Assembly (NCBI GenBank): GCA_963748225.1
Contig: CAVVHW010000015.1
Coordinates: forward strand, 7,838-71,837
Direction of reading: 5' to 3'
Source: an uncultured Acidobacteriaceae bacterium
GTDB taxonomy: Bacteria; Acidobacteriota; Terriglobia; Terriglobales; Acidobacteriaceae
Length of the DNA stretch: 64,000 nucleotides
Positions 3,415 to 21,386 of the stretch are shown here, piece after piece (within the stretch, counting starts at the first letter, position 1; each line of letters opens with the position of its first letter). The position numbers were made by a program, and so were the translations under genes. The notes under the pieces were generated by a model that worked only from the letters and a program-made list of their open reading frames with translations, did not search any database and was not told the DNA's origin.

Positions 3415-4230
3415 GTGAGCTCCGACCAGAAAAATGTGTAGCGGGAAAGTTTATATCAGGACAGCGGGTTTATGTGGCACGACTGAAATTCGGGTAGTGG
3501 ACTAAATGTGTGTTGACGGCCCCCAGCCCGGCGGCGGCTCCATGAAGACGAATATCCACCTATCCTCTTCTGGGAAGTCGATCATTAGACCTTCGGAAAG
3601 AAGCGCACCTCTTGGGATGGCTGCCTGTTCTTCGTCGGATAACAAGGAGATCGGGGGGCAACGACGAATGTGATTCCCGCGACGTTCAAGGGAACACTGA
3701 ATCCGGTAAAGCCGTTTTGGGAAGTAATAGAAACCTCTTCTGCCGTGAGACTGGAGATTGTTCCCGAGCCGGGAAAAATTACCCTTCCCGACCTACTGAC
3801 AAACGCCACGGTACTACTGGACAGAAACTTTAATACCTGCATGGCTTCGTCGAAAGAAATCAAGGCGCCCCCTTTCCCCGATTGGGTATGGATGTTCTGT
3901 GGCCGAATGGTTGAGCGAGCGAAACTACCTAAACAACACCGAAATGACAACACCCTTCCGGATTAGATTCTGCGCGACATTTTCACTTGCCTCAGAGAGG
4001 GCTATCCCCGCCTCGCCGAACATATCCAGGCCGGAGGCTACAAGTTCGTTTAGCAGGCCAGCGTCGTGTGCATCGCAATCAGTGGGATGCATCAGACGTA
4101 AACAGGGAGACCAATCTTCGTCCACTGCGGGGTCGCCCTCAAAGATCAGGGTTTCCCATTGTCCGCAACGAGCGCCGTACTCACAGAGCAGTTAAAGGCG
4201 GTGGTGTGAATGGATGTAGCCAGATCACTG

Positions 4231-4701
4231 TTAGGCTCCGATGGTGGCACTCGGCAGGCGATCATGACTAACCCAATCCCGAAGCGCCTCCGGGTTGGGA
4301 ATTGTTATCTGATGGCCGTACTCGCATACGATTCCATCAAGTTTCCAAAAAGACATCTCTGCGAGGCACTGTTCTTTCGCGGTGCCAGACTCTCGGAGTG
4401 CGACCAGTTCTACTTGAGATTTGCAGTTGCTACCATCGCATCTTGCTACGACTGAAAATCGGACAATGCCTGTCTTTTGAGGCGGTGCGTCATTCAATAC
4501 CGCCCCTTCGGATGTTTGACGATTCTGCCAATCGAATTGATAGGCACTCTTACATCGCGGGCATACAAGCGTTAGAAAAGGAGCGCCCGTGGTTGACGCT
4601 CCCCGATATCGAACTATTTCTTCAAGGTTGGTTTCAGGCTGATAGATGTATGACCCGCAGTTTGGGCAGTACAAGCGGTACTCAGGTCGAGACAAGCACA
4701 C
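4231..4701 (-). CDS. hypothetical Cys-rich (zinc-ribbon-like) protein
   Basis: 156-aa ORF with paired CxxC motifs (CPNCGSY ... CPRCKSAY) and further Cys (CDGSNCKS). It lies in a lower-GC stretch next to an IS remnant. I recognise no family. Confidence 0.45.
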   Translation of the reverse strand: MCLSRPEYRLYCPNCGSYIYQPETNLEEIVRYRGASTTGAPFLTLVCPRCKSAYQFDWQNRQTSEGAVLNDAPPQKTGIVRFSVVARCDGSNCKSQVELVALRESGTAKEQCLAEMSFWKLDGIVCEYGHQITIPNPEALRDWVSHDRLPSATIGA

Positions 4702-7538: not shown

Positions 7539-7811
7539 TCAAGGTCCCATAATGGAGACGAACAGCGCTCGCACGACGACGGCGTAAAAGAAAAGGGCAA
7601 AAACAAGGACAGTTGTCCATTTATGTAGGTTTGTTAGAATGCTGAGCAGATCTGCGTCTAGATGAATTAGGCTAAGGCCGAAGAACGCCAAGTGAATTAA
7701 AGCGAGAATTAGAAGTAAATTTATTAGGGTTACAGCATCTCGCCATTGCGAGAGAACATCCGGGCGGACGTCCTTCCACAGCCTGCGCCAGAATCCAGCC
7801 TGATCAGCCAT
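7539..7811 (-). CDS. hypothetical small membrane protein
   Basis: 90-aa ORF with two clear TM segments (LINLLLILALIHLAFFGLSLI; TVLVFALFFYAVVVRALFV). It lies in an otherwise ORF-poor, lower-GC stretch. Confidence 0.35.
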   Translation of the reverse strand: MADQAGFWRRLWKDVRPDVLSQWRDAVTLINLLLILALIHLAFFGLSLIHLDADLLSILTNLHKWTTVLVFALFFYAVVVRALFVSIMGP

Positions 7812-8185
7812 CGCATCAGAAGTATACGCGGCCGCCCTGGTGCCCCTTCTTTTGGTTGACTGAGTGTTTTGGTCCTGCCTCCGCTACGGTATCTGCGTGT
7901 CTGCCTGCGAATGAGTTCGCATATTGGTAGTGGTGTAAGAAGCCCGCAAATCAAGCGTCGGAATCTGCGGCGACCGTTACGCAGGACCGAGACAATAGCG
8001 GCGCTCGTCGGTAAGTGGGAATGAGACCGAGTCCCGAAGGGATTCGATGATTCACCTACGGACCCCGGCTCCGCGGTCGCGATAGCGTGGTCAGCAGGAT
8101 CCAGAGTCCTCCGGATGAAAAAGTGAATGTTCTAGAGGCGATCACGCGCGCGTGAGATGATTGCATTGATCCGCACGAGGACACC

Positions 8186-9382
8186 CTGGCCGATTCCATT
8201 CCAATCATCACCGTAAACCATCGCGGAGCCGCGCGGCTGGGTGGCGGGCACTTGTGGGTCTATCGCTCCGATCTGGTGCCACCAGCGGAAGCTCCGGCCG
8301 GCTCGCTGGTCCACGTGCGTGATGAGCGTGGGCGCCGGCTCGGATCGGCCCTCTACAGCAGCGCTTCGCAGATTGCGGTCCGCCTGCTGACCGCCGACGA
8401 AATCAGTGAAGCGCAACTCCCGTCTCTCGTGCGGGAACGTATCGCTGCTGCCGTTCGCTTTCGCCACCAGGTCGCGCGTGATACCGATTCCTACCGCGCC
8501 ATCTTCAGCGAGGCTGACCTGCTCCCGGGCCTCATCCTCGATAAGTACAACGATGTGCTGTCCCTGCAGGCGTTGACCCAGGCCTTTGATCGGCAGGATC
8601 TGCGGCGGTTAGTACTCGACGCGATCGCCGAATACTATCCCCAAGCCAGTGTGATTGAGCGCGTCGATCCACACATTCGCGAACTGGAGCAATTGCCGCC
8701 ACGCAATTCGCAACTGGTGCGCGGCGCAAAATCCAACACCATCTTCACCATGAACGAAGTCCGCTTCCACTTCGACGGACTCGGCGGGCAGAAGACCGGA
8801 GCCTTCCTCGATCAGCGCGAGAACTACGCCGCGGCGGCGCGGTACGCTCACGGAGATGCTCTGGACTGCTTCACCTATCAGGGAGGATTTGCACTGCACC
8901 TCGCGCGGACGTGCCAGAGCGTTACCGCTGTGGACTCGTCGCGTCCGGCGCTGGAAGTGGCGGAGCAGAATGAGCAACTCAATCGCGATGCCCACCGCTG
9001 CGGCGAGATGGAGTGGATCGAGGCCAATGCATTCGACCTGCTCAAGGACTACGCCACTGCCGGCCGCCAGTACGACACTATCGTTCTTGATCCGCCGGCC
9101 TTCGCCAAGACCAAGCGAACTTTGCCGACTGCGCTGCGCGGCTACAAGGAGCTGAACCTCCGCGCTCTGAAGATGCTGCGGCCGGGAGGCGTCCTCGTGA
9201 CCTGCTCATGTTCGTTCCACGTCAGCGAAGGCGAGTTCCTGGCCATGCTCGGCTCCGCCGCCACCGATGCCGGTCGTCGCGTGCGAATCCTCGAGAGACG
9301 CGGCCAGGCCCTCGATCATCCCAGCTTGCTGAATATGCCGGAGACGTCGTATTTGAAGTGCATACTTTCCCAAGTCGTTTAG
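8186..9382 (+). CDS. RlmI-like class I SAM-dependent rRNA (m5C) methyltransferase with PUA-like N-terminus
   Basis: N-terminal ...ITVNHRGAARLGGGHLWVYRSDL (PUA-type), a Rossmann block ALDCFTYQGGFAL, and motif IV IVLDPPAFAK. The ORF track starts at TTG 8252, which would cut the PUA region. CTG 8186 lies 5 nt after GAGGA. The start is uncertain. Confidence 0.8.
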   Translation: MADSIPIITVNHRGAARLGGGHLWVYRSDLVPPAEAPAGSLVHVRDERGRRLGSALYSSASQIAVRLLTADEISEAQLPSLVRERIAAAVRFRHQVARDTDSYRAIFSEADLLPGLILDKYNDVLSLQALTQAFDRQDLRRLVLDAIAEYYPQASVIERVDPHIRELEQLPPRNSQLVRGAKSNTIFTMNEVRFHFDGLGGQKTGAFLDQRENYAAAARYAHGDALDCFTYQGGFALHLARTCQSVTAVDSSRPALEVAEQNEQLNRDAHRCGEMEWIEANAFDLLKDYATAGRQYDTIVLDPPAFAKTKRTLPTALRGYKELNLRALKMLRPGGVLVTCSCSFHVSEGEFLAMLGSAATDAGRRVRILERRGQALDHPSLLNMPETSYLKCILSQVV

Positions 9383-9533
9383 AAACATCGGTTTATTAGT
9401 TTCACCCCCAGCCTTCTTTCTTTGCCTCAGCATCGCCTGGTTCCCAATGTTCCAACACCAAATGATACATAACTTTATATTTATCTGTAGCTTAGATAGA
9501 TATCTAATGCCAGCCTGAGTCTGACGATTTTAT

Positions 9534-9562
9534 TTGACAATAGTAAGCTCATATTTTATGAT
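9534..9562 (+). promoter_or_regulatory. sigma70-type promoter candidate for hsp20
   Basis: TTGACA (9534-9539), a 17-nt spacer, then TATGAT (9557-9562), inside a strongly AT-rich intergenic region about 75 nt upstream of the hsp20 ATG. Confidence 0.5.
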
Positions 9563-9637
9563 TCTTTTGTGCTGAGATATACATCAAACTCAGTGAAGGT
9601 CATATAGACCGCAACATCTTTTTGGAGGATTTGGATC

Positions 9638-10153
9638 ATGACTGTGTTAACCCGCTGGGAACCGTTTCGTGAGTTGACCGCTTTGCAGAATCGTATGAAC
9701 CGTTTGTTCGAAGAGCAGTACGGCGGCGGCCGCGAAGAGTCGCTGACCACCGGCGCCTTTGCTCCTCCGGTTGACATTTACGAAGACGAGCACAGCATCC
9801 AGTTGAAGCTGGAAGTGCCCGGCATCGACGAAAAGGACCTGGACATCCGGGTGGAAAACAACGTTCTCACTGTAAGCGGCGAGCGTAAGTTCGAGAAGGA
9901 AGAGAAGGAAGAGAACTTCCGCCGGGTGGAGCGCCGCTATGGCAGCTTCAGCCGCTCGTTCACTCTGCCGAACACGGTGAACACCGAGGACATTCAGGCC
10001 GAGTACACCAATGGAGTATTGAACGTTCGACTGGCAAAGCGTGCCGAAGCCAAGCCGAAGCAGATCAAGGTCAATATCGGCACCCAGAAGCCGCTTGAAG
10101 GCAAGAAGCCCGAAGGTCAGACGCACAGCGCGACCAAAGGGCAGGTTGCCTGA
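9638..10153 (+). CDS. Hsp20/alpha-crystallin family small heat-shock protein
   Basis: The alpha-crystallin domain pattern is PPVDIYEDEHSIQLKLEVPGIDEKDLDIRVENNVLTVSGERK...FSRSFTLPNTV...EYTNGVLNVRL. GGAGGA lies upstream of the ATG. Confidence 0.95.
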   Translation: MTVLTRWEPFRELTALQNRMNRLFEEQYGGGREESLTTGAFAPPVDIYEDEHSIQLKLEVPGIDEKDLDIRVENNVLTVSGERKFEKEEKEENFRRVERRYGSFSRSFTLPNTVNTEDIQAEYTNGVLNVRLAKRAEAKPKQIKVNIGTQKPLEGKKPEGQTHSATKGQVA

Positions 10154-10203
10154 CCCAAGTTTCGCCCACCGGTGAGATCGGAGGGAGACGAACTGGGGAG
10201 TTC

Positions 10204-10233
10204 AAGGGAGGCGAATCTGCCTCCCTTTTGTTT
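10204..10233 (+). terminator. rho-independent terminator after hsp20
   Basis: 9-bp stem aagggaggc / gcctccctt with a 6-nt loop, followed by ttttgttt. Confidence 0.7.
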
Positions 10234-10406
10234 ACCGAAGGAACTCACCGGGGGCGAAAGCTAGACAGTGGCAAGTGGTGGGTGGATAGTAGTCAAATAA
10301 GGCAGGGGGCCGAGCACCTTGCCTATGGGTGGGACGTGCGAAGCGATACCAGAACACCCGTGACCTCCTTGACTATCCACTCACCACTTTTCATTGGAGT
10401 GAACCC

Positions 10407-13043
10407 ATGGCAATTCGTTGGGATAAGTTAACAGTTAAGGCGCAGGAAGCCATGCAGCGGGCGAACGATCTGGCCAGCGAGAACGGTAATCCTGAGTTGC
10501 AACCGGTACATATTCTGGCCGCGCTGCTGGAAGATCGCGAAGGCATCGTCGCTCCTTTGTTGGAGCGTGTAGGACTGCATACCCAAACGGTGCAAGCCGA
10601 GGTCATGAGCGACATCGAGCGCCTGCCCAAAGTCTCGGGCAGCGGCTCCACGCAGGCACATCTCTCGGATGCCGCCCAGAAGGTGCTGGAGAATGCCTTC
10701 AAAGAGGCCGCCAACTTCAAGGACGAGTACGTCTCTACCGAGCACATGCTGCTGGGGATGACCAAGTTGAAACGCGATGCGGCACAGGAGATCCTGACGC
10801 GCGGCGGCGCCACCTATGACAACATCCTGCGCGGGCTGACCACGGTGCGCGGCAATCAGAAGGTCACCGACCAGAATCCCGAAGCCAAGTATCAGGCGCT
10901 GGAGCGCTACGCCAAGGACCTGACCGAGCTCGCCCGCCAGGGCAAACTCGATCCCGTGATCGGGCGCGACGAAGAAGTGCGTCGCGTCGTGCAGGTGCTT
11001 TCGCGCCGCACCAAGAACAATCCAGTGCTGATTGGCGAACCCGGCGTCGGCAAGACTGCCATCGTCGAAGGCCTGGCGCAACGCATCATCTCCGGCGACG
11101 TGCCCGAGCAGCTGAAGAACAAGCGCGTGGTGTCGCTCGACCTGGGAGCGATGCTGGCGGGTGCTAAGTATCGCGGCGAATTCGAAGATCGCCTGAAAGC
11201 CGTGCTGAAGGAGATTGAGCAGTCGCAAGGGCAGATCATCCTGTTCATTGACGAGCTGCATACGCTGGTGGGCGCGGGAGCGGCCGAAGGCGCGATTGAC
11301 GCCTCCAACATGCTGAAGCCGGCGCTGGCACGCGGAGAGCTACGCGCCATTGGCGCCACCACGCTGAACGAATATCGCAAGTACATCGAGAAAGACGCCG
11401 CCCTGGAGCGGCGCTTCCAGATTGTGTATGTCGGCGAGCCCAACGTCGAGGACACCATCGCCATCCTGCGCGGTCTGCGCGAGAAGTACGAAGTTCACCA
11501 CGGCGTGCGCATTAAGGATTCGGCGATTGTGGCGGCGGCTACGCTGTCGCATCGCTACATCTCCGACCGCTTCCTGCCCGACAAAGCCATCGATCTGATC
11601 GACGAGGCCGCGGCTTCGCTGCGCATCCAGATTGACTCCATGCCAACCGAGATCGACCAGTTGGAGCGCCGGGCGACGCAGCTGGAGATCGAGCGCCAGG
11701 CGCTGAAGCGCGAAGACGATGCGAACTCGCGCGAACGGCTGGCAACTCTGGAGAAAGAGCTGGCGCACATCAAAGAGGACGCCAATGCTCTGAAGGCGCG
11801 TTGGAAGCAGGAGAAGGAAGCCATCGCTAAGGTGCGCGAGGCTAAGGAGCGCATCGAGCGGCTGAAGCTTGAGGAGCAGGAAGCCACACGCAAGGGCGAC
11901 TACAACCGCGCGGCGCAGATCAAGTACGGCGAGCTGCCGCAGTTGGAAGCGGAAGTGGCCAAGCTAAGCGCGGCGATGGATGGCAAGCAGTCGCGCATGT
12001 TGAAAGAAGAAGTCGATGAGGAAGACGTTGCCAAGATCGTCAGCAAGTGGACCGGCATTCCGGTGTCGAAGATGCTGGAAGGCGAAGTGAAGAAGCTGGT
12101 CACCATGGAAGACCGTCTGCGCCAACGCGTGATCGGACAAGATGAGGCGATCCAGAGCGTGGCTAACGCCATCCGGCGTTCACGTGCTGGGCTAAGCGAT
12201 CCGCGCCGGCCGATTGGCTCGTTCATCTTTCTGGGGCCGACAGGTGTCGGCAAGACCGAGCTGGCGCGGGCGCTGGCGGAATTTCTGTTCGATGATGAGC
12301 ACAACATGATTCGCATCGACATGTCGGAGTACATGGAGAAGCATTCCGTGTCGCGGCTGATCGGCGCGCCTCCAGGCTACATCGGCTACGACGAGGGCGG
12401 GCAGTTGACCGAAGCGGTGCGCCGCCGGCCGTACGCCGTGGTGCTGTTCGATGAAATCGAGAAGGCGCATCCCGACGTGTTCAATGTCTTCCTGCAGATC
12501 ATGGACGACGGCCGCCTCACCGACGGCAAGGGACGCATCGTCGATTTCAAGAACACCATCCTCATCATGACGTCGAACATTGGTTCGAGTTATCTGCAGG
12601 ACCTCGGCGAGCGTTCGCCGGAGCAGATCTCTGACGCGCACCAGCGGGTGATGGAGGCGCTACGGGCGCACTTCAAGCCCGAGTTCCTGAACCGAGTGGA
12701 CGACATTGTCATCTTCAATCCGCTGGGCAAAGAGCAGCTCACGAAGATCGTGGACCTGCGGCTGGAAGACCTGCGCAGGCTGTTGGCCGATCGCAAGATC
12801 AGCCTGGAGCTGACCGCGAAGGCGAAGGAGCTGATCTTTACCGAAGGCTACGATCCGAATTACGGTGCGCGTCCGTTGAAGCGGGCCATCCAGCGCCTGG
12901 TGCAGGACCCGCTGGCCATGAAGATCCTCGACGGCGAGGTGCTCCATGGCGATCACGTCGTCGTGGACGTCGACAAGAAGGAGCACAAGCTGACGTTCAA
13001 AGTGGCGAAACGGGTGGGAGAACCAGCGGCGGTAACGAAGTAA
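10407..13043 (+). CDS. clpB: ATP-dependent chaperone ClpB
   Basis: It has a Clp N-domain, two AAA+ modules ([16 protein letters not shown]) and a long coiled-coil middle domain between them. Start chosen at MAIRWDKLT (ATG 10407) rather than the upstream in-frame start at 10329. Confidence 0.97.
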
Positions 13044-16303: not shown

Positions 16304-16550
16304 TATCGGCAGGCGCGCGCGACGCCCGTGGGGCGGGCAATCGTCGGGTCTCCGACGATACATCGGGCAAGGGCGACATTCACGTGCGCGTCTCGCCGAT
16401 GGCGGTGATGGGTTCGGCGATTGTGCTGCTTGTGGTTGGCGTGATGAGCGGCGTGGTCCAGTCCTGCGCGCGTCGAAGCTGGATCCGGTAGAGGCGTTGA
16501 GGTACGAGTGAGGCCGGCTGCTTGAGGAACGCTCATAAACGGAATGGGAT

Positions 16551-17096
16551 CTATCCGAACCGCAGCAACGGCGGAGCCTCTTGTTCAGTAACTCCCCCTC
16601 CCTCTAAGAATGGGGTCACATCTCTCACTCCCGATTCACGCAGCACAGCAGAAAGATCTTCGAGACAGCCTATTTTCGAGAATGATTTTTTGGCACGCAG
16701 GTAAAGAAGAACATTCTTGTGGGCATTAATTAAATTGACGACATTGGTGAGGGTTCCTTTGCTCCGACCGTCCCACAGCATGAAGCCACAGGTCGAGCGG
16801 GTTGCCATGGCTTTGTCTTTGATCGCGTAGTAGTGGCGGTCGCGTCGAAGGTGCGAGGGGGCTTGGTGATGCTGGGTTGACCATCCGCCGACATTGTTTC
16901 GACAGACATCCATGCAATGTACAACCACATTCTGATACTGCCGTTTCGCAAGATAACTCTGAACGGCCTTGTCGGCGCCGTTAGCGTCGCCGACAAGCAC
17001 GGTGAATCCCTGCTTTATGATGTTGTCAATACGTTCCGTAATCTGCGAATTTAACCGCGAGACGGCGCGAGAACCGGCAATAAAAACGGTTGTCAT
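16551..17096 (-). CDS. SLOG/DprA-like Rossmann-fold protein (putative ShosA-like partner)
   Basis: It starts TVFIAGSRAVS and carries VLVGDANGADKAVQSYL and CGFMLWDGRSKGT. This is the G-rich strand plus GxxxGxD signature of the SLOG superfamily (DprA/DUF2493-like). It is coupled to the upstream PRTase gene by a 2-nt spacer. Confidence 0.65.
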   Translation of the reverse strand: MTTVFIAGSRAVSRLNSQITERIDNIIKQGFTVLVGDANGADKAVQSYLAKRQYQNVVVHCMDVCRNNVGGWSTQHHQAPSHLRRDRHYYAIKDKAMATRSTCGFMLWDGRSKGTLTNVVNLINAHKNVLLYLRAKKSFSKIGCLEDLSAVLRESGVRDVTPFLEGGGVTEQEAPPLLRFG

Positions 17097-17098
17097 CG

Positions 17099-17680
17099 TT
17101 AGCTCCTTGTGCGCGTGAGCGCGAGGACATATAAGGCCTTCGCCCGCCCCTGTACCTTGATCAATTCTGCAACGACCGTCATGCTTGCACCTGATTGCAA
17201 GAGATCGTCAATCAACAGCACGTCTTTCCCTACGAGATCATCGCCAACCGTAAAGGCCCCCCTCAATGTGGCAACTCGCTCCGAGAAGTCGCCGATGTCC
17301 TTCATCTGCGCGGTGCTTTTCAATTTCGAAACGGACCTCGTATCCAGAGGAATATTCAAAGCTCGACTCAATGCGGAGCCAATTTCGAAAGTCGGTTGCA
17401 CGGGACGTTGTTTTGAGGGCGGCATCGGGACAATGACATTGGGATAAATCCCAACGGTCTTCAAGAATTGTGCCGTAATTTCGACGATAGGTTCAATCAC
17501 ACTTTGGTCCCGCTTATATTTCAGGCGGTATACCAACTCACCGAGTTCGGAACGCTGAGTGTCGAATTCAGGATGGCCGAACTCGTTGTACCCTATCATG
17601 GTACTCGAAATCGTGTGCCTGTCTAGGACATATCCTCGATCCCATGGACCCTTAATTTCCTTCGGGTCGATGTTCACCAT
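17099..17680 (-). CDS. ComF-like phosphoribosyltransferase-domain protein (putative ShosT-like)
   Basis: LVYRLKYKRD..., VIVPMPPSK, ...R..LRGAFTV... and the PRPP-binding loop GKDVLLIDDLLQSGASM match the ComF/PRTase core. There is no N-terminal zinc finger. Confidence 0.7.
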   Translation of the reverse strand: MVNIDPKEIKGPWDRGYVLDRHTISSTMIGYNEFGHPEFDTQRSELGELVYRLKYKRDQSVIEPIVEITAQFLKTVGIYPNVIVPMPPSKQRPVQPTFEIGSALSRALNIPLDTRSVSKLKSTAQMKDIGDFSERVATLRGAFTVGDDLVGKDVLLIDDLLQSGASMTVVAELIKVQGRAKALYVLALTRTRS

Positions 17681-17761
17681 GAATTCAGCCTTCCTTTACT
17701 TGAATCAGCGATCATAGACTGGGCAGGTGACAAATTCGTTCTGAACATACGGGAAAGTATG

Positions 17762-19294
17762 CTATCGCTTATTGGACGTCTCCCTTGCCCGGTTCTTGAT
17801 CCAGATTGGCGTGCCCACAAATCCAAAGGCCGCTCGAATCTGGTTCTCCAGAAATCGCTGATACGAGAAGTGCAGCTTCACCGCGCGATCGGTGAACAGG
17901 ATGAACGTGGGTGGCGACACGCCTGCCTGGGTCATATATAGAATCTTGACTCGCTTCGCCATCGGAACCGAAGCCCGCTCGAAATCAACCTTGGCGAGAA
18001 ACCGGTTCATCTCTCCGGTGCCGATGCGCTTGCGCCGCTCGCGTGACACCAGTTCCAGCGTGGAAAATACCTTGTCGAGATTTCGCCCCGTAGTCGCCGA
18101 AACAAACAACACCGGGGCGTACGACAAAAACTTCAGGTGCCGCCGAACCTGCTCCTCGTAAACGCTGCGGTCCGCAGGAGGCTTGCCGTCGGTCCGCTTA
18201 TCCGTGACGAGATCCCATTTGTTGATAACGATGATCACCGACCGTCCACTCTCATGCGCGTAACCGGCGATCGTGGCATCGCTGGCGGTGACACCTTCCA
18301 CCGCATCAATCAACATCAGTGCCACGTCGGCGCCCTCGAGATGCTTGCGCGCCATCACCACCGACAGTTTCTCGGCCATCAATTCCGTCTTGCCTTTGCG
18401 ACGAATGCCCGCCGTATCGATAAAGCGATACTCGAGTCCGTCGCGCTCGATGAGTTCGTCCACGGCATCACGCGTGGTGCCGGCAATCGGCGAAACAATC
18501 GCGCGCGACGTGCCGGTCAGCGCATTTAACAGCGTCGATTTGCCGACATTCGGACGGCCGATGATCGCGACGCGAGTCTCGCGGGGAAGCTCAGCCTCCT
18601 GTTCTTCTGTCCCCTCAGCTCTATCTGTCATTTCGATTTCATCTGTCATCCCGAGCGTAGTTCGGTCGCCGGCGGCGCCCGAACGGAGTCGAGGGACCTG
18701 CTTTTCGCCAATATCAGCCGCCGAGGCTAGCGGGGTTTGCTCCTCCGGCATCACGCTCAGAACATGCTCCAACAGTTCCGCAATACCGTTACCATTCTCG
18801 GCAGAGATGGGAAACAGTTCCTTGATCCCAAGCCGCCGGAATTCCTCGGCGTAAGGTTCAAGCTGCGGCGTGTCGGCTTTATTCACCGCCAACAACAGCG
18901 GCTTGCCGGTGCGCAGCAGCAATCGCGCGAGGTCAATGTCGGGAGACGCCAATTCGGTTCGCCCATCGACCACCAGAACAATCACGTCGGCCTCTTCCAG
19001 CGCTACCCGCGCCTGCCGAAAGATCTCCGCCGGAATCAGTTGTAGGTCGTCGGGAACGATGCCGCCGGTATCGACCACGCGAAACTTCTTACCGACCCAC
19101 TCCACATCGCCATAGATGCGATCGCGGGTGATACCAGGCTCGTCGCCAACAATGGCGCGGCGCGACCCGACCAGCCGATTGAACAGCGTTGACTTGCCGA
19201 CGTTAGGACGACCGACGATGGCCAGCGTCCCGGCTGTAGGCGGTTCGCCCTGTTCGGCAGTCCGGCTGGACTCAAATTGCATGCGACGATTCAC
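17762..19294 (-). CDS. der: ribosome-biogenesis GTPase Der (EngA) with repeat-derived linker insertion
   Basis: Two G domains (GRPNVGKSTLFN, DTGG, NKAD; GRPNVGKSTLLN, DTAG, NKWD) plus a KH-like C-terminus. The inter-domain linker contains the B-family repeat in frame. Confidence 0.95.
   Translation of the reverse strand: MNRRMQFESSRTAEQGEPPTAGTLAIVGRPNVGKSTLFNRLVGSRRAIVGDEPGITRDRIYGDVEWVGKKFRVVDTGGIVPDDLQLIPAEIFRQARVALEEADVIVLVVDGRTELASPDIDLARLLLRTGKPLLLAVNKADTPQLEPYAEEFRRLGIKELFPISAENGNGIAELLEHVLSVMPEEQTPLASAADIGEKQVPRLRSGAAGDRTTLGMTDEIEMTDRAEGTEEQEAELPRETRVAIIGRPNVGKSTLLNALTGTSRAIVSPIAGTTRDAVDELIERDGLEYRFIDTAGIRRKGKTELMAEKLSVVMARKHLEGADVALMLIDAVEGVTASDATIAGYAHESGRSVIIVINKWDLVTDKRTDGKPPADRSVYEEQVRRHLKFLSYAPVLFVSATTGRNLDKVFSTLELVSRERRKRIGTGEMNRFLAKVDFERASVPMAKRVKILYMTQAGVSPPTFILFTDRAVKLHFSYQRFLENQIRAAFGFVGTPIWIKNRARETSNKR
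18645..18709. repeat. B-family hairpin repeat located inside der
   Basis: gtcatcccgagcgtagttcggtcgccggcggcgcccgaacggagtcgagggacctgcttttcgcc. On the der strand it is translated as GEKQVPRLRSGAAGDRTTLGMT. Confidence 0.75.
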
Positions 19295-19313
19295 TGAGAC
19301 TCTTTCCGCGGCG

Positions 19314-21386
19314 ATGGCCCCAACAGCGATTGCCCCTAGCGGCTATTATAGGGACAAGACTCCTCGCGTCGTGTCTTCCAAACCACAATCCGCCGCACTG
19401 GCCGCACGTTTGCCGTCGCTGTATCAGTTCTTCGGCCCGGGCGGCGTGTTGGCGCGCACGCATCCGGCATACGAATTCCGTCGCGGACAGCTTCAGATGG
19501 CTGAGGCTGTGGAGCAAGCGCTGACCGAACGCCGCCACCTGATCGTGGAGGCTGGCACTGGCACCGGCAAGACGTTGGCGTACTTGCTGCCCGTCATTCG
19601 TTCCGGTAAACGCGTCATCATTTCCACCGGCACCAAAACCTTGCAGGAGCAGCTCTACTTCAAAGACGTTCCGTTCCTGCGCGAGCATCTTGGCGAGCTA
19701 CGCGTCTGCTACATGAAGGGGCGCGGCAATTATCTCTGCCGCAAGAAGCTCTACGATCTCAGTGATCAGCCGGTGCTGAATGGGCTGGAGGAGATCAACC
19801 AGTTCCGCATCATCAGCGACTGGGAGCGGACCACCGAGACCGGCGACCGCGCTGAACTGGCCGACCTGCCGGAGAATAGCCACCTGTGGCCCAAGCTGGA
19901 CGCGCGCACCGACCGCTGCATCGGCTCGCAATGCCAGCAGTTTGACCGCTGCTTCATCACCGAGATGCGCCGCCGCGCTGCCGAGAGCGACATCATCATC
20001 GTCAACCATCACCTGTTCTGCGCTGACCTGGCGATCAAAGCCGCTAAGGACCACGCCCCCGATGCTGGTGTTTTGCCCGACGCCGGTATCGTCGTCTTCG
20101 ACGAAGCCCATGAACTGGAAGACATTGCCGCCGATTACTTTGGCGTCACCGTATCCAATCTGCGCGTGGATGAATTGCTGCGCGATGTCGAACATACCTT
20201 GCGGCGGGTAGATGTCCCGCTCGCCGATATTGTTCACGTGTGTAATGGCATCAAGGACCGCTCGCAATTCTTCTTCTCGTTGCTGCCGCCGGGTGAGGGC
20301 CGCTTCGCCTTCGAAAATCGTGCCGAGTTCCTGGAAGAAAACGGCGACGAGTATCTTGTCCTGCAAAATTCGCTGGTGCATCTCTACACCGAGCTGCAAG
20401 CCATTCCCAACAAGCCTGACGAAGTTCACGCGCTGTCGCGGCGGGTGGAGGAGTTGCGTGTAAACCTGGGGTTCATCCTGGAAGCCGAGCAGCGCAATAC
20501 GGTCTTCTGGATTGAACGTCGCGGCGACCGCAGGGGCGGACGCAGCACGCAACACAACGTATTTCTGCAAGCCACACCTATCACAGTGTCGGACATCCTG
20601 CGCACCACGCTCTTCGAACACTTGGAATCGGCCGTGCTCACCTCAGCGACGCTGGCAGTCGCCGGAGGTTTCGAGTACATCCGCAACCGCATCGGCATCC
20701 AGCACGCGCGCGAACTGATCGTTCAGTCGCATTTCGACTATGAGAGCCAGGCGCTGCTTTATGTCCCGCCCGATCTGCCCGACCCACGCGCGCCGCAGTT
20801 CGTGGAGTGCGCGGCGCAACGCGTCAAGCAGCTATTGGAGATCACGCGGGGGCGCGCATTCTGTCTGTTCACCAGCTACGCGTTGATGCATCAACTTTAT
20901 GAGCGCTTGCTGGGCGAGTTGGAGTTTCCCATGCTGTTGCAAGGCAGTGCGCCCAAGAATGCGCTGCTGGAAGAGTTTCGGCTGACGCCGAACGCAGTGC
21001 TTTTTGCGACGTCGTCGTTTTGGCAAGGGGTTGACGTCCAAGGCGAGCAGCTCAGTTGCGTCATCATCGACCGGCTACCGTTTGCGGTTCCGAACGATCC
21101 CGTGGTAGCCGCGCGAATCAAAGCCATCGATGAAGAGGGCGGCAATGCCTTCTTCCAGTACCAGGTACCCGGCGCCGCGCTGGCGCTGAAGCAAGGCTTT
21201 GGCCGGCTGATCCGCTCGCTGCACGATCGTGGCCTGCTCTGCCTGCTCGATAATCGCATCCTGAAGAAGCAGTACGGGCGCGTCTTCCTCGACAGCCTAC
21301 CGAAGTACGGACGTACGACGGACATCCAGGCGGTGGAGAGGTTCTTTGGCGTGAACTCGCAGGACGAGAAAATTCACCCGACCTAA
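19314..21386 (+). CDS. DinG/Rad3-like ATP-dependent DNA helicase (Fe-S type)
   Basis: Walker A AGTGTGKT, DEAH box FDEAHELED, Cys cluster CRKK...CIGSQCQQFDRC, and a C-terminal helicase domain (QGVDV...). The start is uncertain. The listed ORF start at 19116 overlaps der. Confidence 0.85.
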   Translation: MAPTAIAPSGYYRDKTPRVVSSKPQSAALAARLPSLYQFFGPGGVLARTHPAYEFRRGQLQMAEAVEQALTERRHLIVEAGTGTGKTLAYLLPVIRSGKRVIISTGTKTLQEQLYFKDVPFLREHLGELRVCYMKGRGNYLCRKKLYDLSDQPVLNGLEEINQFRIISDWERTTETGDRAELADLPENSHLWPKLDARTDRCIGSQCQQFDRCFITEMRRRAAESDIIIVNHHLFCADLAIKAAKDHAPDAGVLPDAGIVVFDEAHELEDIAADYFGVTVSNLRVDELLRDVEHTLRRVDVPLADIVHVCNGIKDRSQFFFSLLPPGEGRFAFENRAEFLEENGDEYLVLQNSLVHLYTELQAIPNKPDEVHALSRRVEELRVNLGFILEAEQRNTVFWIERRGDRRGGRSTQHNVFLQATPITVSDILRTTLFEHLESAVLTSATLAVAGGFEYIRNRIGIQHARELIVQSHFDYESQALLYVPPDLPDPRAPQFVECAAQRVKQLLEITRGRAFCLFTSYALMHQLYERLLGELEFPMLLQGSAPKNALLEEFRLTPNAVLFATSSFWQGVDVQGEQLSCVIIDRLPFAVPNDPVVAARIKAIDEEGGNAFFQYQVPGAALALKQGFGRLIRSLHDRGLLCLLDNRILKKQYGRVFLDSLPKYGRTTDIQAVERFFGVNSQDEKIHPT

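Follow-up and report, generated by a model that had tools for sequence, protein, structure and literature searches.

A two-gene PRTase-SLOG cassette from an Acidobacteriaceae genome, a stripped-down relative of the PsyrTA/ShosTA anti-phage systems with a putative role in phage defence

The window analysed here is a stretch of 64,000 nucleotides from an uncultured Acidobacteriaceae bacterium, within which two small minus-strand genes lie downstream of der in an islet whose neighbours are housekeeping genes, with no defence island. The features of this islet are as follows.

17680..17099, minus strand: candidate toxin/effector PRTase gene, 193 aa, ATG start (ORF list)
17096..16551, minus strand: candidate antidote/sensor SLOG gene, 181 aa, ATG start (ORF list)
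17094..17108, minus strand: coupling junction, consisting of AAGGAG (17108..17103), C, TAA (17101..17099), cg and ATG (17096..17094)
17681..17761, minus strand: 81-nt spacer from the der stop to the PRTase start, containing the ribosome-binding site AAGGAAGG (17696..17689)
16399..16511, plus strand: FtsX/MacB-type permease relic, C-terminal TM helix and tail, frameshifted

An earlier note, made from the sequence alone, described two minus-strand genes 2 nt apart; its coordinates and its TAA-cg-ATG junction are reproduced here, and the peptides it quoted are all found in the translations (LVYRLKYKRD, VIVPMPPSK and DVLLIDDLLQSGASM in the PRTase; TVFIAGSR and VLVGDANGADKAVQ in the SLOG protein). 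The junction reads ...AGC TAA cg ATG ACA..., with the AAGGAG Shine-Dalgarno sequence of the SLOG gene located within the 3′ end of the PRTase gene (17108..17103). A scan of the 81-nt spacer identified no sigma-70-like promoter, suggesting that read-through from der is possible, and in the surroundings of the pair neither promoters nor terminators exceeded the shuffled expectation. The GC content of the pair is 0.514, compared to 0.593 for der and 0.579 for the whole window, and the GC3 values of the two genes (0.60 and 0.57) are likewise lower than that of der (0.70); five G+C counts made by hand in the earlier note (21, 24, 32, 36 and 40 of 60) are exact. A tRNA scan found no tRNA integration site within the window. 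The sole repeat bracketing the pair is a 19-nt, 84% inverted repeat (16364-16382 / 17773-17791), which was considered as a transposon end and judged to be a chance occurrence, one arm lying inside the der coding sequence. In keeping with the earlier note, no competence or nucleotide salvage genes are present within about 8 kb, and no retron-type reverse transcriptase or ncRNA was identified near the pair.

The 30-codon ORF previously reported at 16399-16491 on the plus strand does exist, but is a pseudogene relic of a permease and unrelated to the module. The relic reads MAVMGSAIVLLVVGVMSGVV in one frame and continues in another with PVLRASKLDPVEALRYE, followed by a stop, and the closest relative contig carries an intact 420-aa MacB_PCD/FtsX gene convergent on the pair at the same position. 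This hydrophobic mini-ORF, being a frameshifted FtsX permease fragment, was rejected as a third component of the module. It is at this relic that the islet has its downstream boundary.

The first gene of the pair encodes a stand-alone, ComF-like type I phosphoribosyltransferase (PRTase) in which all three PRPP-binding loops are kept: the PPi loop PMPPSKQRPVQP, the flexible loop K119..F143, and the PRPP loop VLLIDDLLQSGASM containing D158 and D159, which are invariant in a wide alignment of the PRTase family. The PRTase core, at about residues 60-193, is preceded by a family-specific conserved module (residues ~1-55) that replaces the ComF zinc finger; the N-terminus has no Cys-rich motif, confirming that the zinc finger is missing. 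Pfam PF00156 is matched under its gathering cut-off (E 1.8e-5), and the best NCBIfam model, TIGR00201 comF (1.2e-12), is matched with 48 bits against a cut-off of 233.55. Among defence models, PADLOC PsyrT is matched at 2e-17, with the match confined to model positions 537-685 of 689, and PADLOC ShosT at 3.5e-9; both models are matched by 33/33 PRTase family members tested, with a best PsyrT E-value of 7e-24. Alignment by hhalign to the PRTase domain of an E. coli plasmid RecQ-PRTase gives a probability of 97% (E 3e-11, aligned region 577-704 of 710), and BLASTP gives 4e-7. In the plasmid used for this comparison, a DprA gene lies next downstream of the RecQ-PRTase gene. The AF2 model of the PRTase (pLDDT 84) has H. 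pylori ComFC (7p0h) as its best Foldseek match and ShosT at rank 10, with the ShosT structures 8zvb, 8zvc and 8zvd all matched by the predicted fold. PDB sequence searches with both proteins and both profiles retrieved generic PRTases only and no match for the partner; it is by fold alone that ShosT and ShosA are reached.

The second gene encodes a 181-aa stand-alone SLOG protein with a DprA/YAcAr-like Rossmann domain that begins at Rossmann strand 1 (residues 3-8) and carries no HTH. The conserved core comprises the first ~152 residues and is followed by a variable C-terminal tail, of which residues 170-181 are predicted to be disordered. Across the partner family, which counts 2108 representatives, the invariant residues are G36, D37, A38, G40, D42, Q46, R66, N67, N68, G70, W72, K93, D94, W108, S112, G114, T115 and N118. 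Searches of Pfam, NCBIfam and PADLOC gave sub-threshold profile matches to DNA_processg_A (0.0026), YAcAr (0.042), and ShosA and PsyrA (E 0.021 each), with the ShosA model matching across 45 residues only. The score against DprA models is 17.4 bits, compared to cut-offs of 191 (NCBIfam TIGR00732) and 29.6 (Pfam PF02481), and residues 4-60 alone align; similarly weak DprA matches occur in 27/33 partner homologs. Comparison with an E. coli PsyrA-like DprA was not significant by hhalign and gave no match by BLASTP. The best PDB match of the AF2 model (pLDDT 89) in Foldseek is ShosA (8zva, E 2.4e-4, a moderate TM of 0.55), followed by the TRPM SLOG domain, HpDprA and YpsA (2nx2, rank 9). YpsA-family membership was considered and set aside, as the profile search gave no DUF1273 match. 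The description in the earlier note of a short, stand-alone SLOG protein as a divergent partner is therefore upheld: the Rossmann domain is DprA-like, its best fold match in the PDB is ShosA, and its sequence falls below every curated threshold. The ShosTA-like module proposed there is supported, all computational checks suggested in the note having turned out in its favour: the PRTase matches the ShosT model and the predicted fold of the partner matches ShosA best. The reading needs correction in that the closest toxin relative is PsyrT/RqlH rather than ShosT, and the pair does not belong to ShosTA, as the PPase-like N-domain and the SAM domain are both missing.

Relatives of the SLOG protein are found in several fusions and settings. 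Agrobacterium homologs carry a fused C-terminal HTH, dnstrm_HI1420 ("addiction module antidote"), while other SLOG relatives are located N-terminal to the abortive infection effectors HEPN_AbiU2 and Abi_alpha, or are fused to the nucleotide-processing domains NADAR, DUF4326 and DUF488. Solo SLOG homologs on Mesorhizobium plasmids adjoin toprim, DUF2493, DUF736 and ParA genes.

The comparison took in 80 related genome loci, spread over more than 12 phyla. In 78 of them the two genes are neighbours in an unchanged order, indicating that their coupling, as proposed from the sequence alone, is not due to chance and that homologous pairs are strictly syntenic. The commonest junction is a 4-nt ATGA overlap, with spacings of +2/+3 nt in Terriglobales and the overlap elsewhere, and the pairwise identities of PRTase and partner correlate (r = 0.78). 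No third conserved gene was found beside the pair across the 80 loci, the flanks of which are variable. Phyla are intermixed in the tree of the family, at least three insertion contexts exist within Terriglobales, and the cassette is lower in GC than its flanks in 71/76 loci (median -6.4 points; p = 1e-12); this patchy distribution of homologous pairs and their low GC bear out the horizontal acquisition suggested earlier. Within Terriglobales the family shares 60-70% identity, which is unusually high for a conflict module and was counted against a toxin-antidote reading.

The family is carried by mobile elements in cultured bacteria. Genes for the PRTase were found on 70 plasmids and genes for the partner on 101, most of these plasmids being conjugative; natural homologs include those of E. 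coli NCTC11121, plasmid NZ_CP021538 and Klebsiella p67_2. The pair adjoins repA/rep in Klebsiella IncF plasmids, in Listeria pLI100 and in a 13.6-kb Acinetobacter plasmid. At some plasmid loci the pair adjoins CBASS and VapC, at others RM genes. One P2-like prophage of E. coli carries it as cargo between a gpD-like gene and ogr. An IMG/VR scan and tblastn against a phage collection revealed no relatives in sequenced free phages. The defence setting that the earlier note proposed to survey exists for cultured relatives on plasmids and the P2-like prophage, some of them beside CBASS or RM genes, but the window and most of the 80 loci are ordinary in context: among 261 immediate neighbours, PADLOC matches are scattered, single and mostly to generic domains, with no enrichment. 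At locus L037 a RecQ-like helicase lies immediately upstream of the pair, which may be coincidence.

These contexts bear on the possibility that the pair is an accessory two-enzyme system for nucleotide salvage or modification, in which the PRTase would convert a base and PRPP to a nucleotide, on which a LOG-like SLOG protein would then act. PRTase and LOG-type phosphoribohydrolase reactions are formally the reverse of each other, and the SLOG fusions to NADAR, DUF4326 and DUF488 are in keeping with such a pathway. None of the 80 loci, however, has the metabolic operon context that the earlier note had named as the mark of an ordinary pair, the distribution is patchy across phyla with low GC and carriage by plasmids and a prophage, and the PRTase groups with ComF/PsyrT instead of salvage PRTases. 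Furthermore, the position of the catalytic Glu in the LOG motif PGGxGTxxE holds an invariant Asn in the partner family; a LOG-type hydrolase reading of the partner was rejected on this ground, classical LOG chemistry being unsupported. Nucleotide salvage is consequently a very improbable function for the pair.

Loss of the two genes is asymmetric. Lesions of the PRTase beside an intact partner number about 18 independent events (frameshifts, stops, truncations, and IS or insertion), a count that in metagenomes was ascertained via the intact partner, which inflates the asymmetry, and that includes some lesions from nanopore MAGs, where assembly errors are possible. Further broken PRTase genes beside an intact partner occur on A. 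vitis plasmids, and intact and broken PRTase alleles coexist inside 95%-identity clusters. Partner lesions were found at two loci only, L016, where the PRTase C-terminus is lost too, and L161.

This pattern is unexpected for a cooperative ssDNA-handling module derived from ComFC and DprA, with which plasmids and prophages would protect or recombine incoming DNA without any toxicity. The PRTase is structurally most similar to ComFC, which has been reported to bind ssDNA and to interact with DprA in C. jejuni and S. pneumoniae (PMC9005727); the carriage of the pair by conjugative plasmids and a prophage, and the occurrence on Mesorhizobium plasmids of solo SLOG homologs adjacent to toprim, DUF2493, DUF736 and ParA genes, would also suit such a role. 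Against it stand the repeated loss of the PRTase alone, the missing ComF zinc finger, the TIGR00201 and TIGR00732 scores far under their cut-offs, the fusions to an antidote HTH and to Abi effectors, and the lack of competence genes near the pair. Nor is the arginine with which DprA binds ssDNA conserved throughout the family: the window partner and environmental members have it as R10, within the GSR motif, and the E. coli, Klebsiella and Acinetobacter members have Ile. The conserved ssDNA-binding arginines of ShosA are R139 and R234, and the replacement of R10 by Ile in enterobacterial members suggests that the ShosA mechanism is not simply transferable. Taken together, we regard a cooperative ssDNA-handling role as quite unlikely.

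A sensor-effector defence pair, in which a phage cue (ssDNA or a nucleotide) is recognised by the SLOG protein, which then activates the PRTase instead of simply restraining it, would also lose a costly effector preferentially, and loss of its SLOG protein would be harmless. The same logic has been proposed for DprA and PRTase by Rousset et al. (PMC9122126), and the location of SLOG relatives N-terminal to HEPN_AbiU2 and Abi_alpha is the usual place of a sensor domain. The partner, however, is almost never lost alone, its homologs include the antidote-type HTH fusion, and the pair is placed by plasmid replication genes, as is typical of addiction modules. The homologous systems act as toxin-antitoxins, in that deletion of psyrA or shosA was unachievable and the toxins are neutralised by RqlI and by ShosA. 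A sensor-effector arrangement is for these reasons considered unlikely.

The pair is probably a compact toxin-antidote cassette that moves horizontally and belongs to the PRTase/DprA-like class, corresponding to PsyrTA (RqlHI)/ShosTA cut to two core domains. Pointing to this reading are the domains identified, the homology between the PRTase and the toxin domain of PsyrT/ShosT, the strict pairing, the mobility and the asymmetric PRTase decay. The pair displays the generic traits of a toxin-antitoxin system, being small, co-directional, translationally coupled, mobile as a unit, and present on plasmids and prophages, and it displays asymmetric loss, the candidate toxin being lost alone repeatedly and the candidate antitoxin almost never, as ascertained in metagenomes via the intact partner. 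As a toxin-antidote cassette, the PRTase would be toxic and the SLOG protein would neutralise it, with a putative role in plasmid or prophage addiction and/or abortive infection defence. By analogy with the homologous RqlH domain, the PRTase is a putative growth-inhibiting effector that may generate a harmful product or adduct from PRPP. The SLOG protein would hold this effector harmless, and is probably a regulatory or sensing part too; candidate means of neutralisation include direct binding (RqlI-like), action on ssDNA/RecA (ShosA-like), and binding or removing the PRTase product.

The last of these can be phrased more specifically: instead of acting on ssDNA and RecA in the manner of DprA/ShosA, the SLOG partner may recognise, and perhaps remove or sequester, the phosphoribosylated product or adduct of the PRTase, such that the two proteins would form a reversible base or nucleic acid phosphoribosylation pair with DarT/DarG-like logic. 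This is hinted at by the invariant polar pocket (GDAxGxD, RNN, KD, WxGxSxGTxxN), by the lack of conservation of the DprA ssDNA arginine, and by the SLOG fusions to the ribose-nucleotide-processing domains NADAR, DUF4326 and DUF488, and is put forward as a rather doubtful, tentative extension of the toxin-antidote reading.

A literature search found no paper on the minimal PRTase-SLOG family, which represents a system pared to its bare domains of 193 aa and 181 aa. The family is a widespread one, its partner proteins falling into more than 2,000 representative clusters. It escapes PADLOC 2.0, Pfam and NCBIfam alike, so that defence and toxin-antitoxin censuses undercount it, and public annotation of the PRTase as a "ComF family" competence protein is misleading. 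The PRTase toxins ShosT, PsyrT/RqlH and the retron effectors all require PRPP binding for killing. Carriage of the family by E. coli and Klebsiella plasmids and by an E. coli P2-like prophage means that direct testing in model hosts is possible.

Amongst known systems, the closest is PsyrTA/RqlHI. The toxicity of RqlH is carried by its PRTase domain, is genotoxic and needs the PRPP pocket (PMC4670107), and RqlI neutralises RqlH by direct binding. The window PRTase is homologous to this C-terminal PRTase domain of PsyrT/RqlH (2e-17; hhalign 97%), the toxin gene is likewise upstream with an overlapping or nearly overlapping junction, the partner is likewise a SLOG superfamily member, and some partner homologs have a C-terminal HTH as RqlI does, although of a different type. 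In contrast, the window PRTase lacks the RecQ-like SF2 helicase, is 193 aa rather than about 700 aa, and has its own 55-residue N-module, while the partner is 181 aa rather than about 400-460 aa and has no detectable sequence similarity to PsyrA.

ShosTA resembles the pair in its PRTase with a PRPP-loop DD motif, located in VLLIDDLLQSGASM in the window protein (ShosT model 3.5e-9, structure rank 10) and required for toxicity in ShosT (PMC11961720), in the predicted fold of the partner, which has ShosA (8zva) as its best PDB match at moderate similarity (TM 0.55), in a C-terminal tail predicted to be disordered as in ShosA, and in having relatives that are P2-like prophage cargo. It differs in that the window PRTase lacks the pyrophosphatase-like domain of ShosT (residues 1-164 of 424), the window partner lacks the N-terminal SAM domain of ShosA, the ssDNA-binding Arg of ShosA that corresponds to R10 is not conserved throughout the partner family, and the prophage site is gpD-ogr for the window family and gpA-gpQ for the ShosTA-type system.

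With ComFC the window PRTase shares its fold, three loops and a ComF-like loop arginine, ComFC being its best Foldseek match, and with DprA the partner shares the GSR, GxAxGxD and SxGT motifs; the pair nevertheless lacks the 4-Cys zinc finger and competence context, scores far under the cut-offs, and has an accessory and mobile distribution. Retrons of type III-A also use a PRTase as an abortive infection effector, and their PRTase model is matched marginally by the window protein (E 0.038), however no reverse transcriptase or ncRNA is located near the window pair. Lastly, Brzozowski, Burroughs and Aravind (2019; PMC6459960) noted by comparative genomics a gene pair, within a conflict setting, in which a small SLOG protein of the YpsA family shows strong coupling to a PRTase; the window partner, which may be of another clade, has no YpsA/DUF1273 match and weak DprA and YAcAr matches instead.

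The candidate module consists of two adjacent minus-strand genes, for a ComF-like phosphoribosyltransferase (PRTase) and a SLOG-fold partner, lying amongst housekeeping genes that encode an RlmI-like methyltransferase, Hsp20, ClpB, an MFS transporter, Der, a DinG-like helicase and QueC. Both ORFs occupy exactly the positions assigned to them in the earlier note, whose motif strings are all present and whose five 60-nt G+C hand counts were reproduced exactly.

17680..17099, minus strand, PRTase ORF, 193 aa
17096..16551, minus strand, SLOG partner ORF, 181 aa
16399-16491, plus strand, hydrophobic 30-codon ORF, last transmembrane helix of an FtsX/MacB permease

The junction between the two genes reads TAA-cg-ATG, as had been claimed, and an AAGGAG ribosome-binding site lies within the 3′ end of the PRTase gene. 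The upstream der (EngA) gene ends 81 nt before the PRTase on the same strand, and no sigma-70-like promoter was found in this spacer. The GC fraction of the pair is 0.514, compared to 0.593 for der and 0.579 for the window. A 19-nt, 84%-complementary inverted repeat (window 16364-16382 and 17773-17791) brackets the pair with one arm within the 3′ end of der, and is probably a chance occurrence, not the terminus of a mobile element. For the DinG-like helicase, the longest ORF (19116-21386, plus strand) overlaps the 5′ end of der (17762-19294, minus strand) by ~180 nt; the true helicase start is probably further downstream. The sole Rfam match in the window, an Acido-Lenti-1 sRNA (RF01687; 22449-22493, minus strand; 40.3 bits, gathering score 37), agrees with an Acidobacteriota origin.

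The hydrophobic ORF that converges on the pair exists as described, but is rejected as a component of the module. This mini-ORF (16399-16511, plus strand) is a frameshifted C-terminal pseudogene relic of an FtsX/MacB-type ABC permease at the islet edge: the canonical permease tail PVLRASKLDPVEALRYE follows it in a different frame, ending at 16511 (...GVMSGVV then PVLRASKLDPVEALRYE). On the contig of the closest relative, the MacB_PCD/FtsX gene at this position is intact (420 aa) and convergent with the pair, so a deletion or rearrangement took place beside the pair in the window genome.

The upstream gene encodes a ComF-like type I PRTase. Profile searches matched comF TIGR00201 (1.2e-12, yet 48 bits where the cut-off is 233), PADLOC PsyrT (2e-17, at C-terminal positions 537-685 of the 689 in the model), PADLOC ShosT (3.5e-9) and Pfam PF00156 (1.8e-5, under the gathering cut-off). 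Both PADLOC models also match all 33 PRTase homologs tested. Profile comparison with the RecQ-PRTase of an E. coli plasmid, a PsyrT/RqlH-type toxin with a DprA gene downstream of it and nested in a type I restriction-modification (RM) operon, gave 97% probability and 29% identity across the PRTase domain. A full-length PsyrTA/RqlHI-type pair on E. coli plasmid NZ_OX030731.1 (2210-5727 of locus L171) comprises a 710-aa RecQ-PRTase and a 462-aa DprA overlapping by 4 nt; it is inserted into a type I restriction system, where it separates the S subunit gene from that of the R subunit. The structure closest to the AF2 model of the PRTase (pLDDT 84) is H. pylori ComFC; PurF and APRT come next, and ShosT ranks tenth. 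All three PRPP-binding loops described in ComFC (PMC9005727) are recognisable, namely the PPi loop PMPPSKQRPVQP, the flexible loop K119-F143 and the PRPP loop VLLIDDLLQSGASM, and residues D158/D159, R92 and Q95/P96 are kept from Listeria to Acidobacteriota. A family-specific, strongly conserved 55-residue N-terminal module replaces the ComF zinc finger; the missing zinc finger and scores far under cut-offs rule out a competence ComFC/DprA pair.

The partner had been called divergent, and indeed stays under every curated threshold (DNA_processg_A 0.0026, YAcAr 0.042, dprA 0.002, ShosA and PsyrA 0.02), as do 33 homologs. Its AF2 model is a SLOG Rossmann fold (pLDDT 89, tail 170-181 disordered) that in the PDB lies closest to the antitoxin ShosA (8zva, E 2.4e-4, TM 0.55); the TRPM SLOG domain, H. 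pylori DprA and YpsA come next. The invariant residues (G36, D37, A38, G40, D42, Q46, R66, N67, N68, W72, K93, D94, W108, S112, G114, T115 and N118) make up a polar pocket, and R10, the counterpart of HpDprA R52 and ShosA R139, is Ile in enterobacterial members. An exhaustive profile search recovered a compact family of 2,108 representatives at E <= 1e-3 (282 at E <= 1e-30) with a conserved core of about 152 residues. Members include NADAR+SLOG, DUF4326+SLOG, DUF488+SLOG, SLOG+HEPN_AbiU2 and SLOG+Abi_alpha fusions, linking the domain to both ribose-nucleotide processing and abortive-infection effectors; relatives P0310, P0322, P0351, P0295 and P0384 between them join it to NADAR, DUF4326, DUF488-N3a, HEPN_AbiU2 and Abi_alpha.

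A scan of one genome per species identified relatives in 154 species, the best 80 loci of which, all from MAGs of more than 12 phyla, were analysed. In 78 of them, the PRTase gene is directly followed by a co-directional SLOG gene; the junction measures +2/+3 nt in Terriglobales, and other groups show a 4-nt ATGA overlap. Of the two remaining loci, L075 is cut off by a contig end and L016 has a deletion. PRTase and partner co-vary (r = 0.78), no third gene is conserved across the 80 loci, and the flanks vary even inside Terriglobales. Defence genes are not enriched among the immediate neighbours of these loci. Horizontal acquisition, proposed from the low GC, is supported across the family: pair GC is below flank GC in 71/76 loci (median -6.4 points, p = 1e-12), and the tree shows a coherent Terriglobales clade but otherwise mixes the phyla. 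The pair is thus both self-contained and mobile.

By tblastn, 70 plasmids carry the PRTase and 101 the partner, most of these plasmids being conjugative. The pair lies beside replication genes in Klebsiella (repA, IncFIB/IncFII plasmids), in Listeria innocua (rep, pLI100) and on an Acinetobacter plasmid of 13.6 kb. It adjoins RM genes on an IncFII plasmid of E. coli, and on an Agrobacterium plasmid its neighbours are a CBASS operon, VapC and an HTH-ImmA pair. The partner on this last plasmid is 286 aa long, ends in a dnstrm_HI1420 HTH and bears the annotation 'addiction module antidote protein'. Among 5,426 complete E. coli genomes, eight hold a pair at least 84% DNA-identical to the E. coli plasmid copy and seven a chromosomal copy; that of NCTC11121 (9001-10148 of locus L170) lies within a P2-like prophage between a gpD-like tail gene and ogr, beside a hok/gef gene. 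In a Desulfatiglans MAG, a 653-aa RecQ-like helicase (7780-9741 of locus L037) with 31% identity to the helicase part of an E. coli PsyrT-like protein is encoded on the same strand ~260 nt upstream of the pair (10001-11136), and could be a 'split PsyrT' or merely a housekeeping recQ. Solo SLOG copies occur on 19 Mesorhizobium plasmids and may be orphaned antidotes, or genes by which conjugative elements counter defence; on M. huakuii plasmid p_3, one lacking a PRTase (4001-4534 of locus L172) neighbours genes for a DUF2493 (YAcAr SLOG) protein, a toprim protein, DUF736 and ParA.

Gene decay bears on which of the two genes is harmful. In the genome set, found via PRTase motifs, five loci combine a damaged PRTase with an intact partner.

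Damaged PRTase genes beside an intact partner
L019, 1-nt frameshift ahead of the PRPP loop
L031, frameshift
L061, internal stops
L063, N-terminal truncation and stop in the PRPP loop
L081, 190-nt insertion

The sole partner loss in this set (L016) also removed the invariant PRTase C-terminus. L063 has a second, orphan SLOG copy (1613-2176), preceded, over about 900-1600, by only the last ~14 PRTase codons and an IS110-like transposase fragment. The metagenome set, found via the partner, contains 52 intact PRTases, 12 frameshifted, six C-terminal stubs and one with a stop. A broken allele, often next to intact ones, is present in 10 of the 42 informative clusters at 95% identity, and the partner is damaged once (L161). 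The PRTase call in the window's closest relative is only 133 aa, and on A. vitis plasmids PRTase genes are frameshifted or IS869-interrupted beside an annotated antidote gene. Overall, about 18 independent lesions affect the PRTase and two the partner, the metagenome loci being ascertained through an intact partner.

This asymmetry is expected if the PRTase is a toxin and the SLOG protein its antidote, and agrees with experiments on homologs. RqlH toxicity is located in the PRTase domain and PRPP pocket, and RqlI binds and neutralises RqlH (PMC4670107); ShosT toxicity requires the PRTase DD motif (PMC11961720), and ShosA neutralises ShosT without binding it, via ssDNA and RecA (PMC12961424). 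We consider toxin and antidote the probable roles of the two proteins, the effector PRTase most likely using PRPP. The ShosA mode of neutralisation cannot simply be carried over, given the Ile at R10 in enterobacterial members and the polar pocket formed by the invariants. A sensor or regulator role for the SLOG domain would agree with the Abi-effector fusions, and binding or processing of a ribose-phosphate ligand with the fusions to NADAR and DUF4326. Based on the latter fusions and the proposal that DUF4326 processes ribose-linked phosphates (PMC9503650), the partner might recognise or reverse the PRTase product, although we regard this as unlikely.

No literature describing or testing this minimal PRTase-SLOG family was found. 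A comparative-genomics paper (PMC6459960) mentions a 'YpsA-PRTase gene pair'; the partner has no match to the YpsA model, though it could be of that clade. The ShosTA-like reading of the earlier note is supported as regards a probable toxin-antidote-type pair with a PsyrT/ShosT-related PRTase. The pair is not itself a ShosTA member, since the PPase-like and SAM domains of ShosTA are both absent. The helicase domain of PsyrTA/RqlHI is likewise absent, and the partner has no detectable sequence similarity to PsyrA or ShosA. The minimal PRTase-SLOG pairs represent an unrecognised, widespread candidate toxin-antidote family, which by analogy would operate like PsyrTA/RqlHI and ShosTA while belonging to neither.
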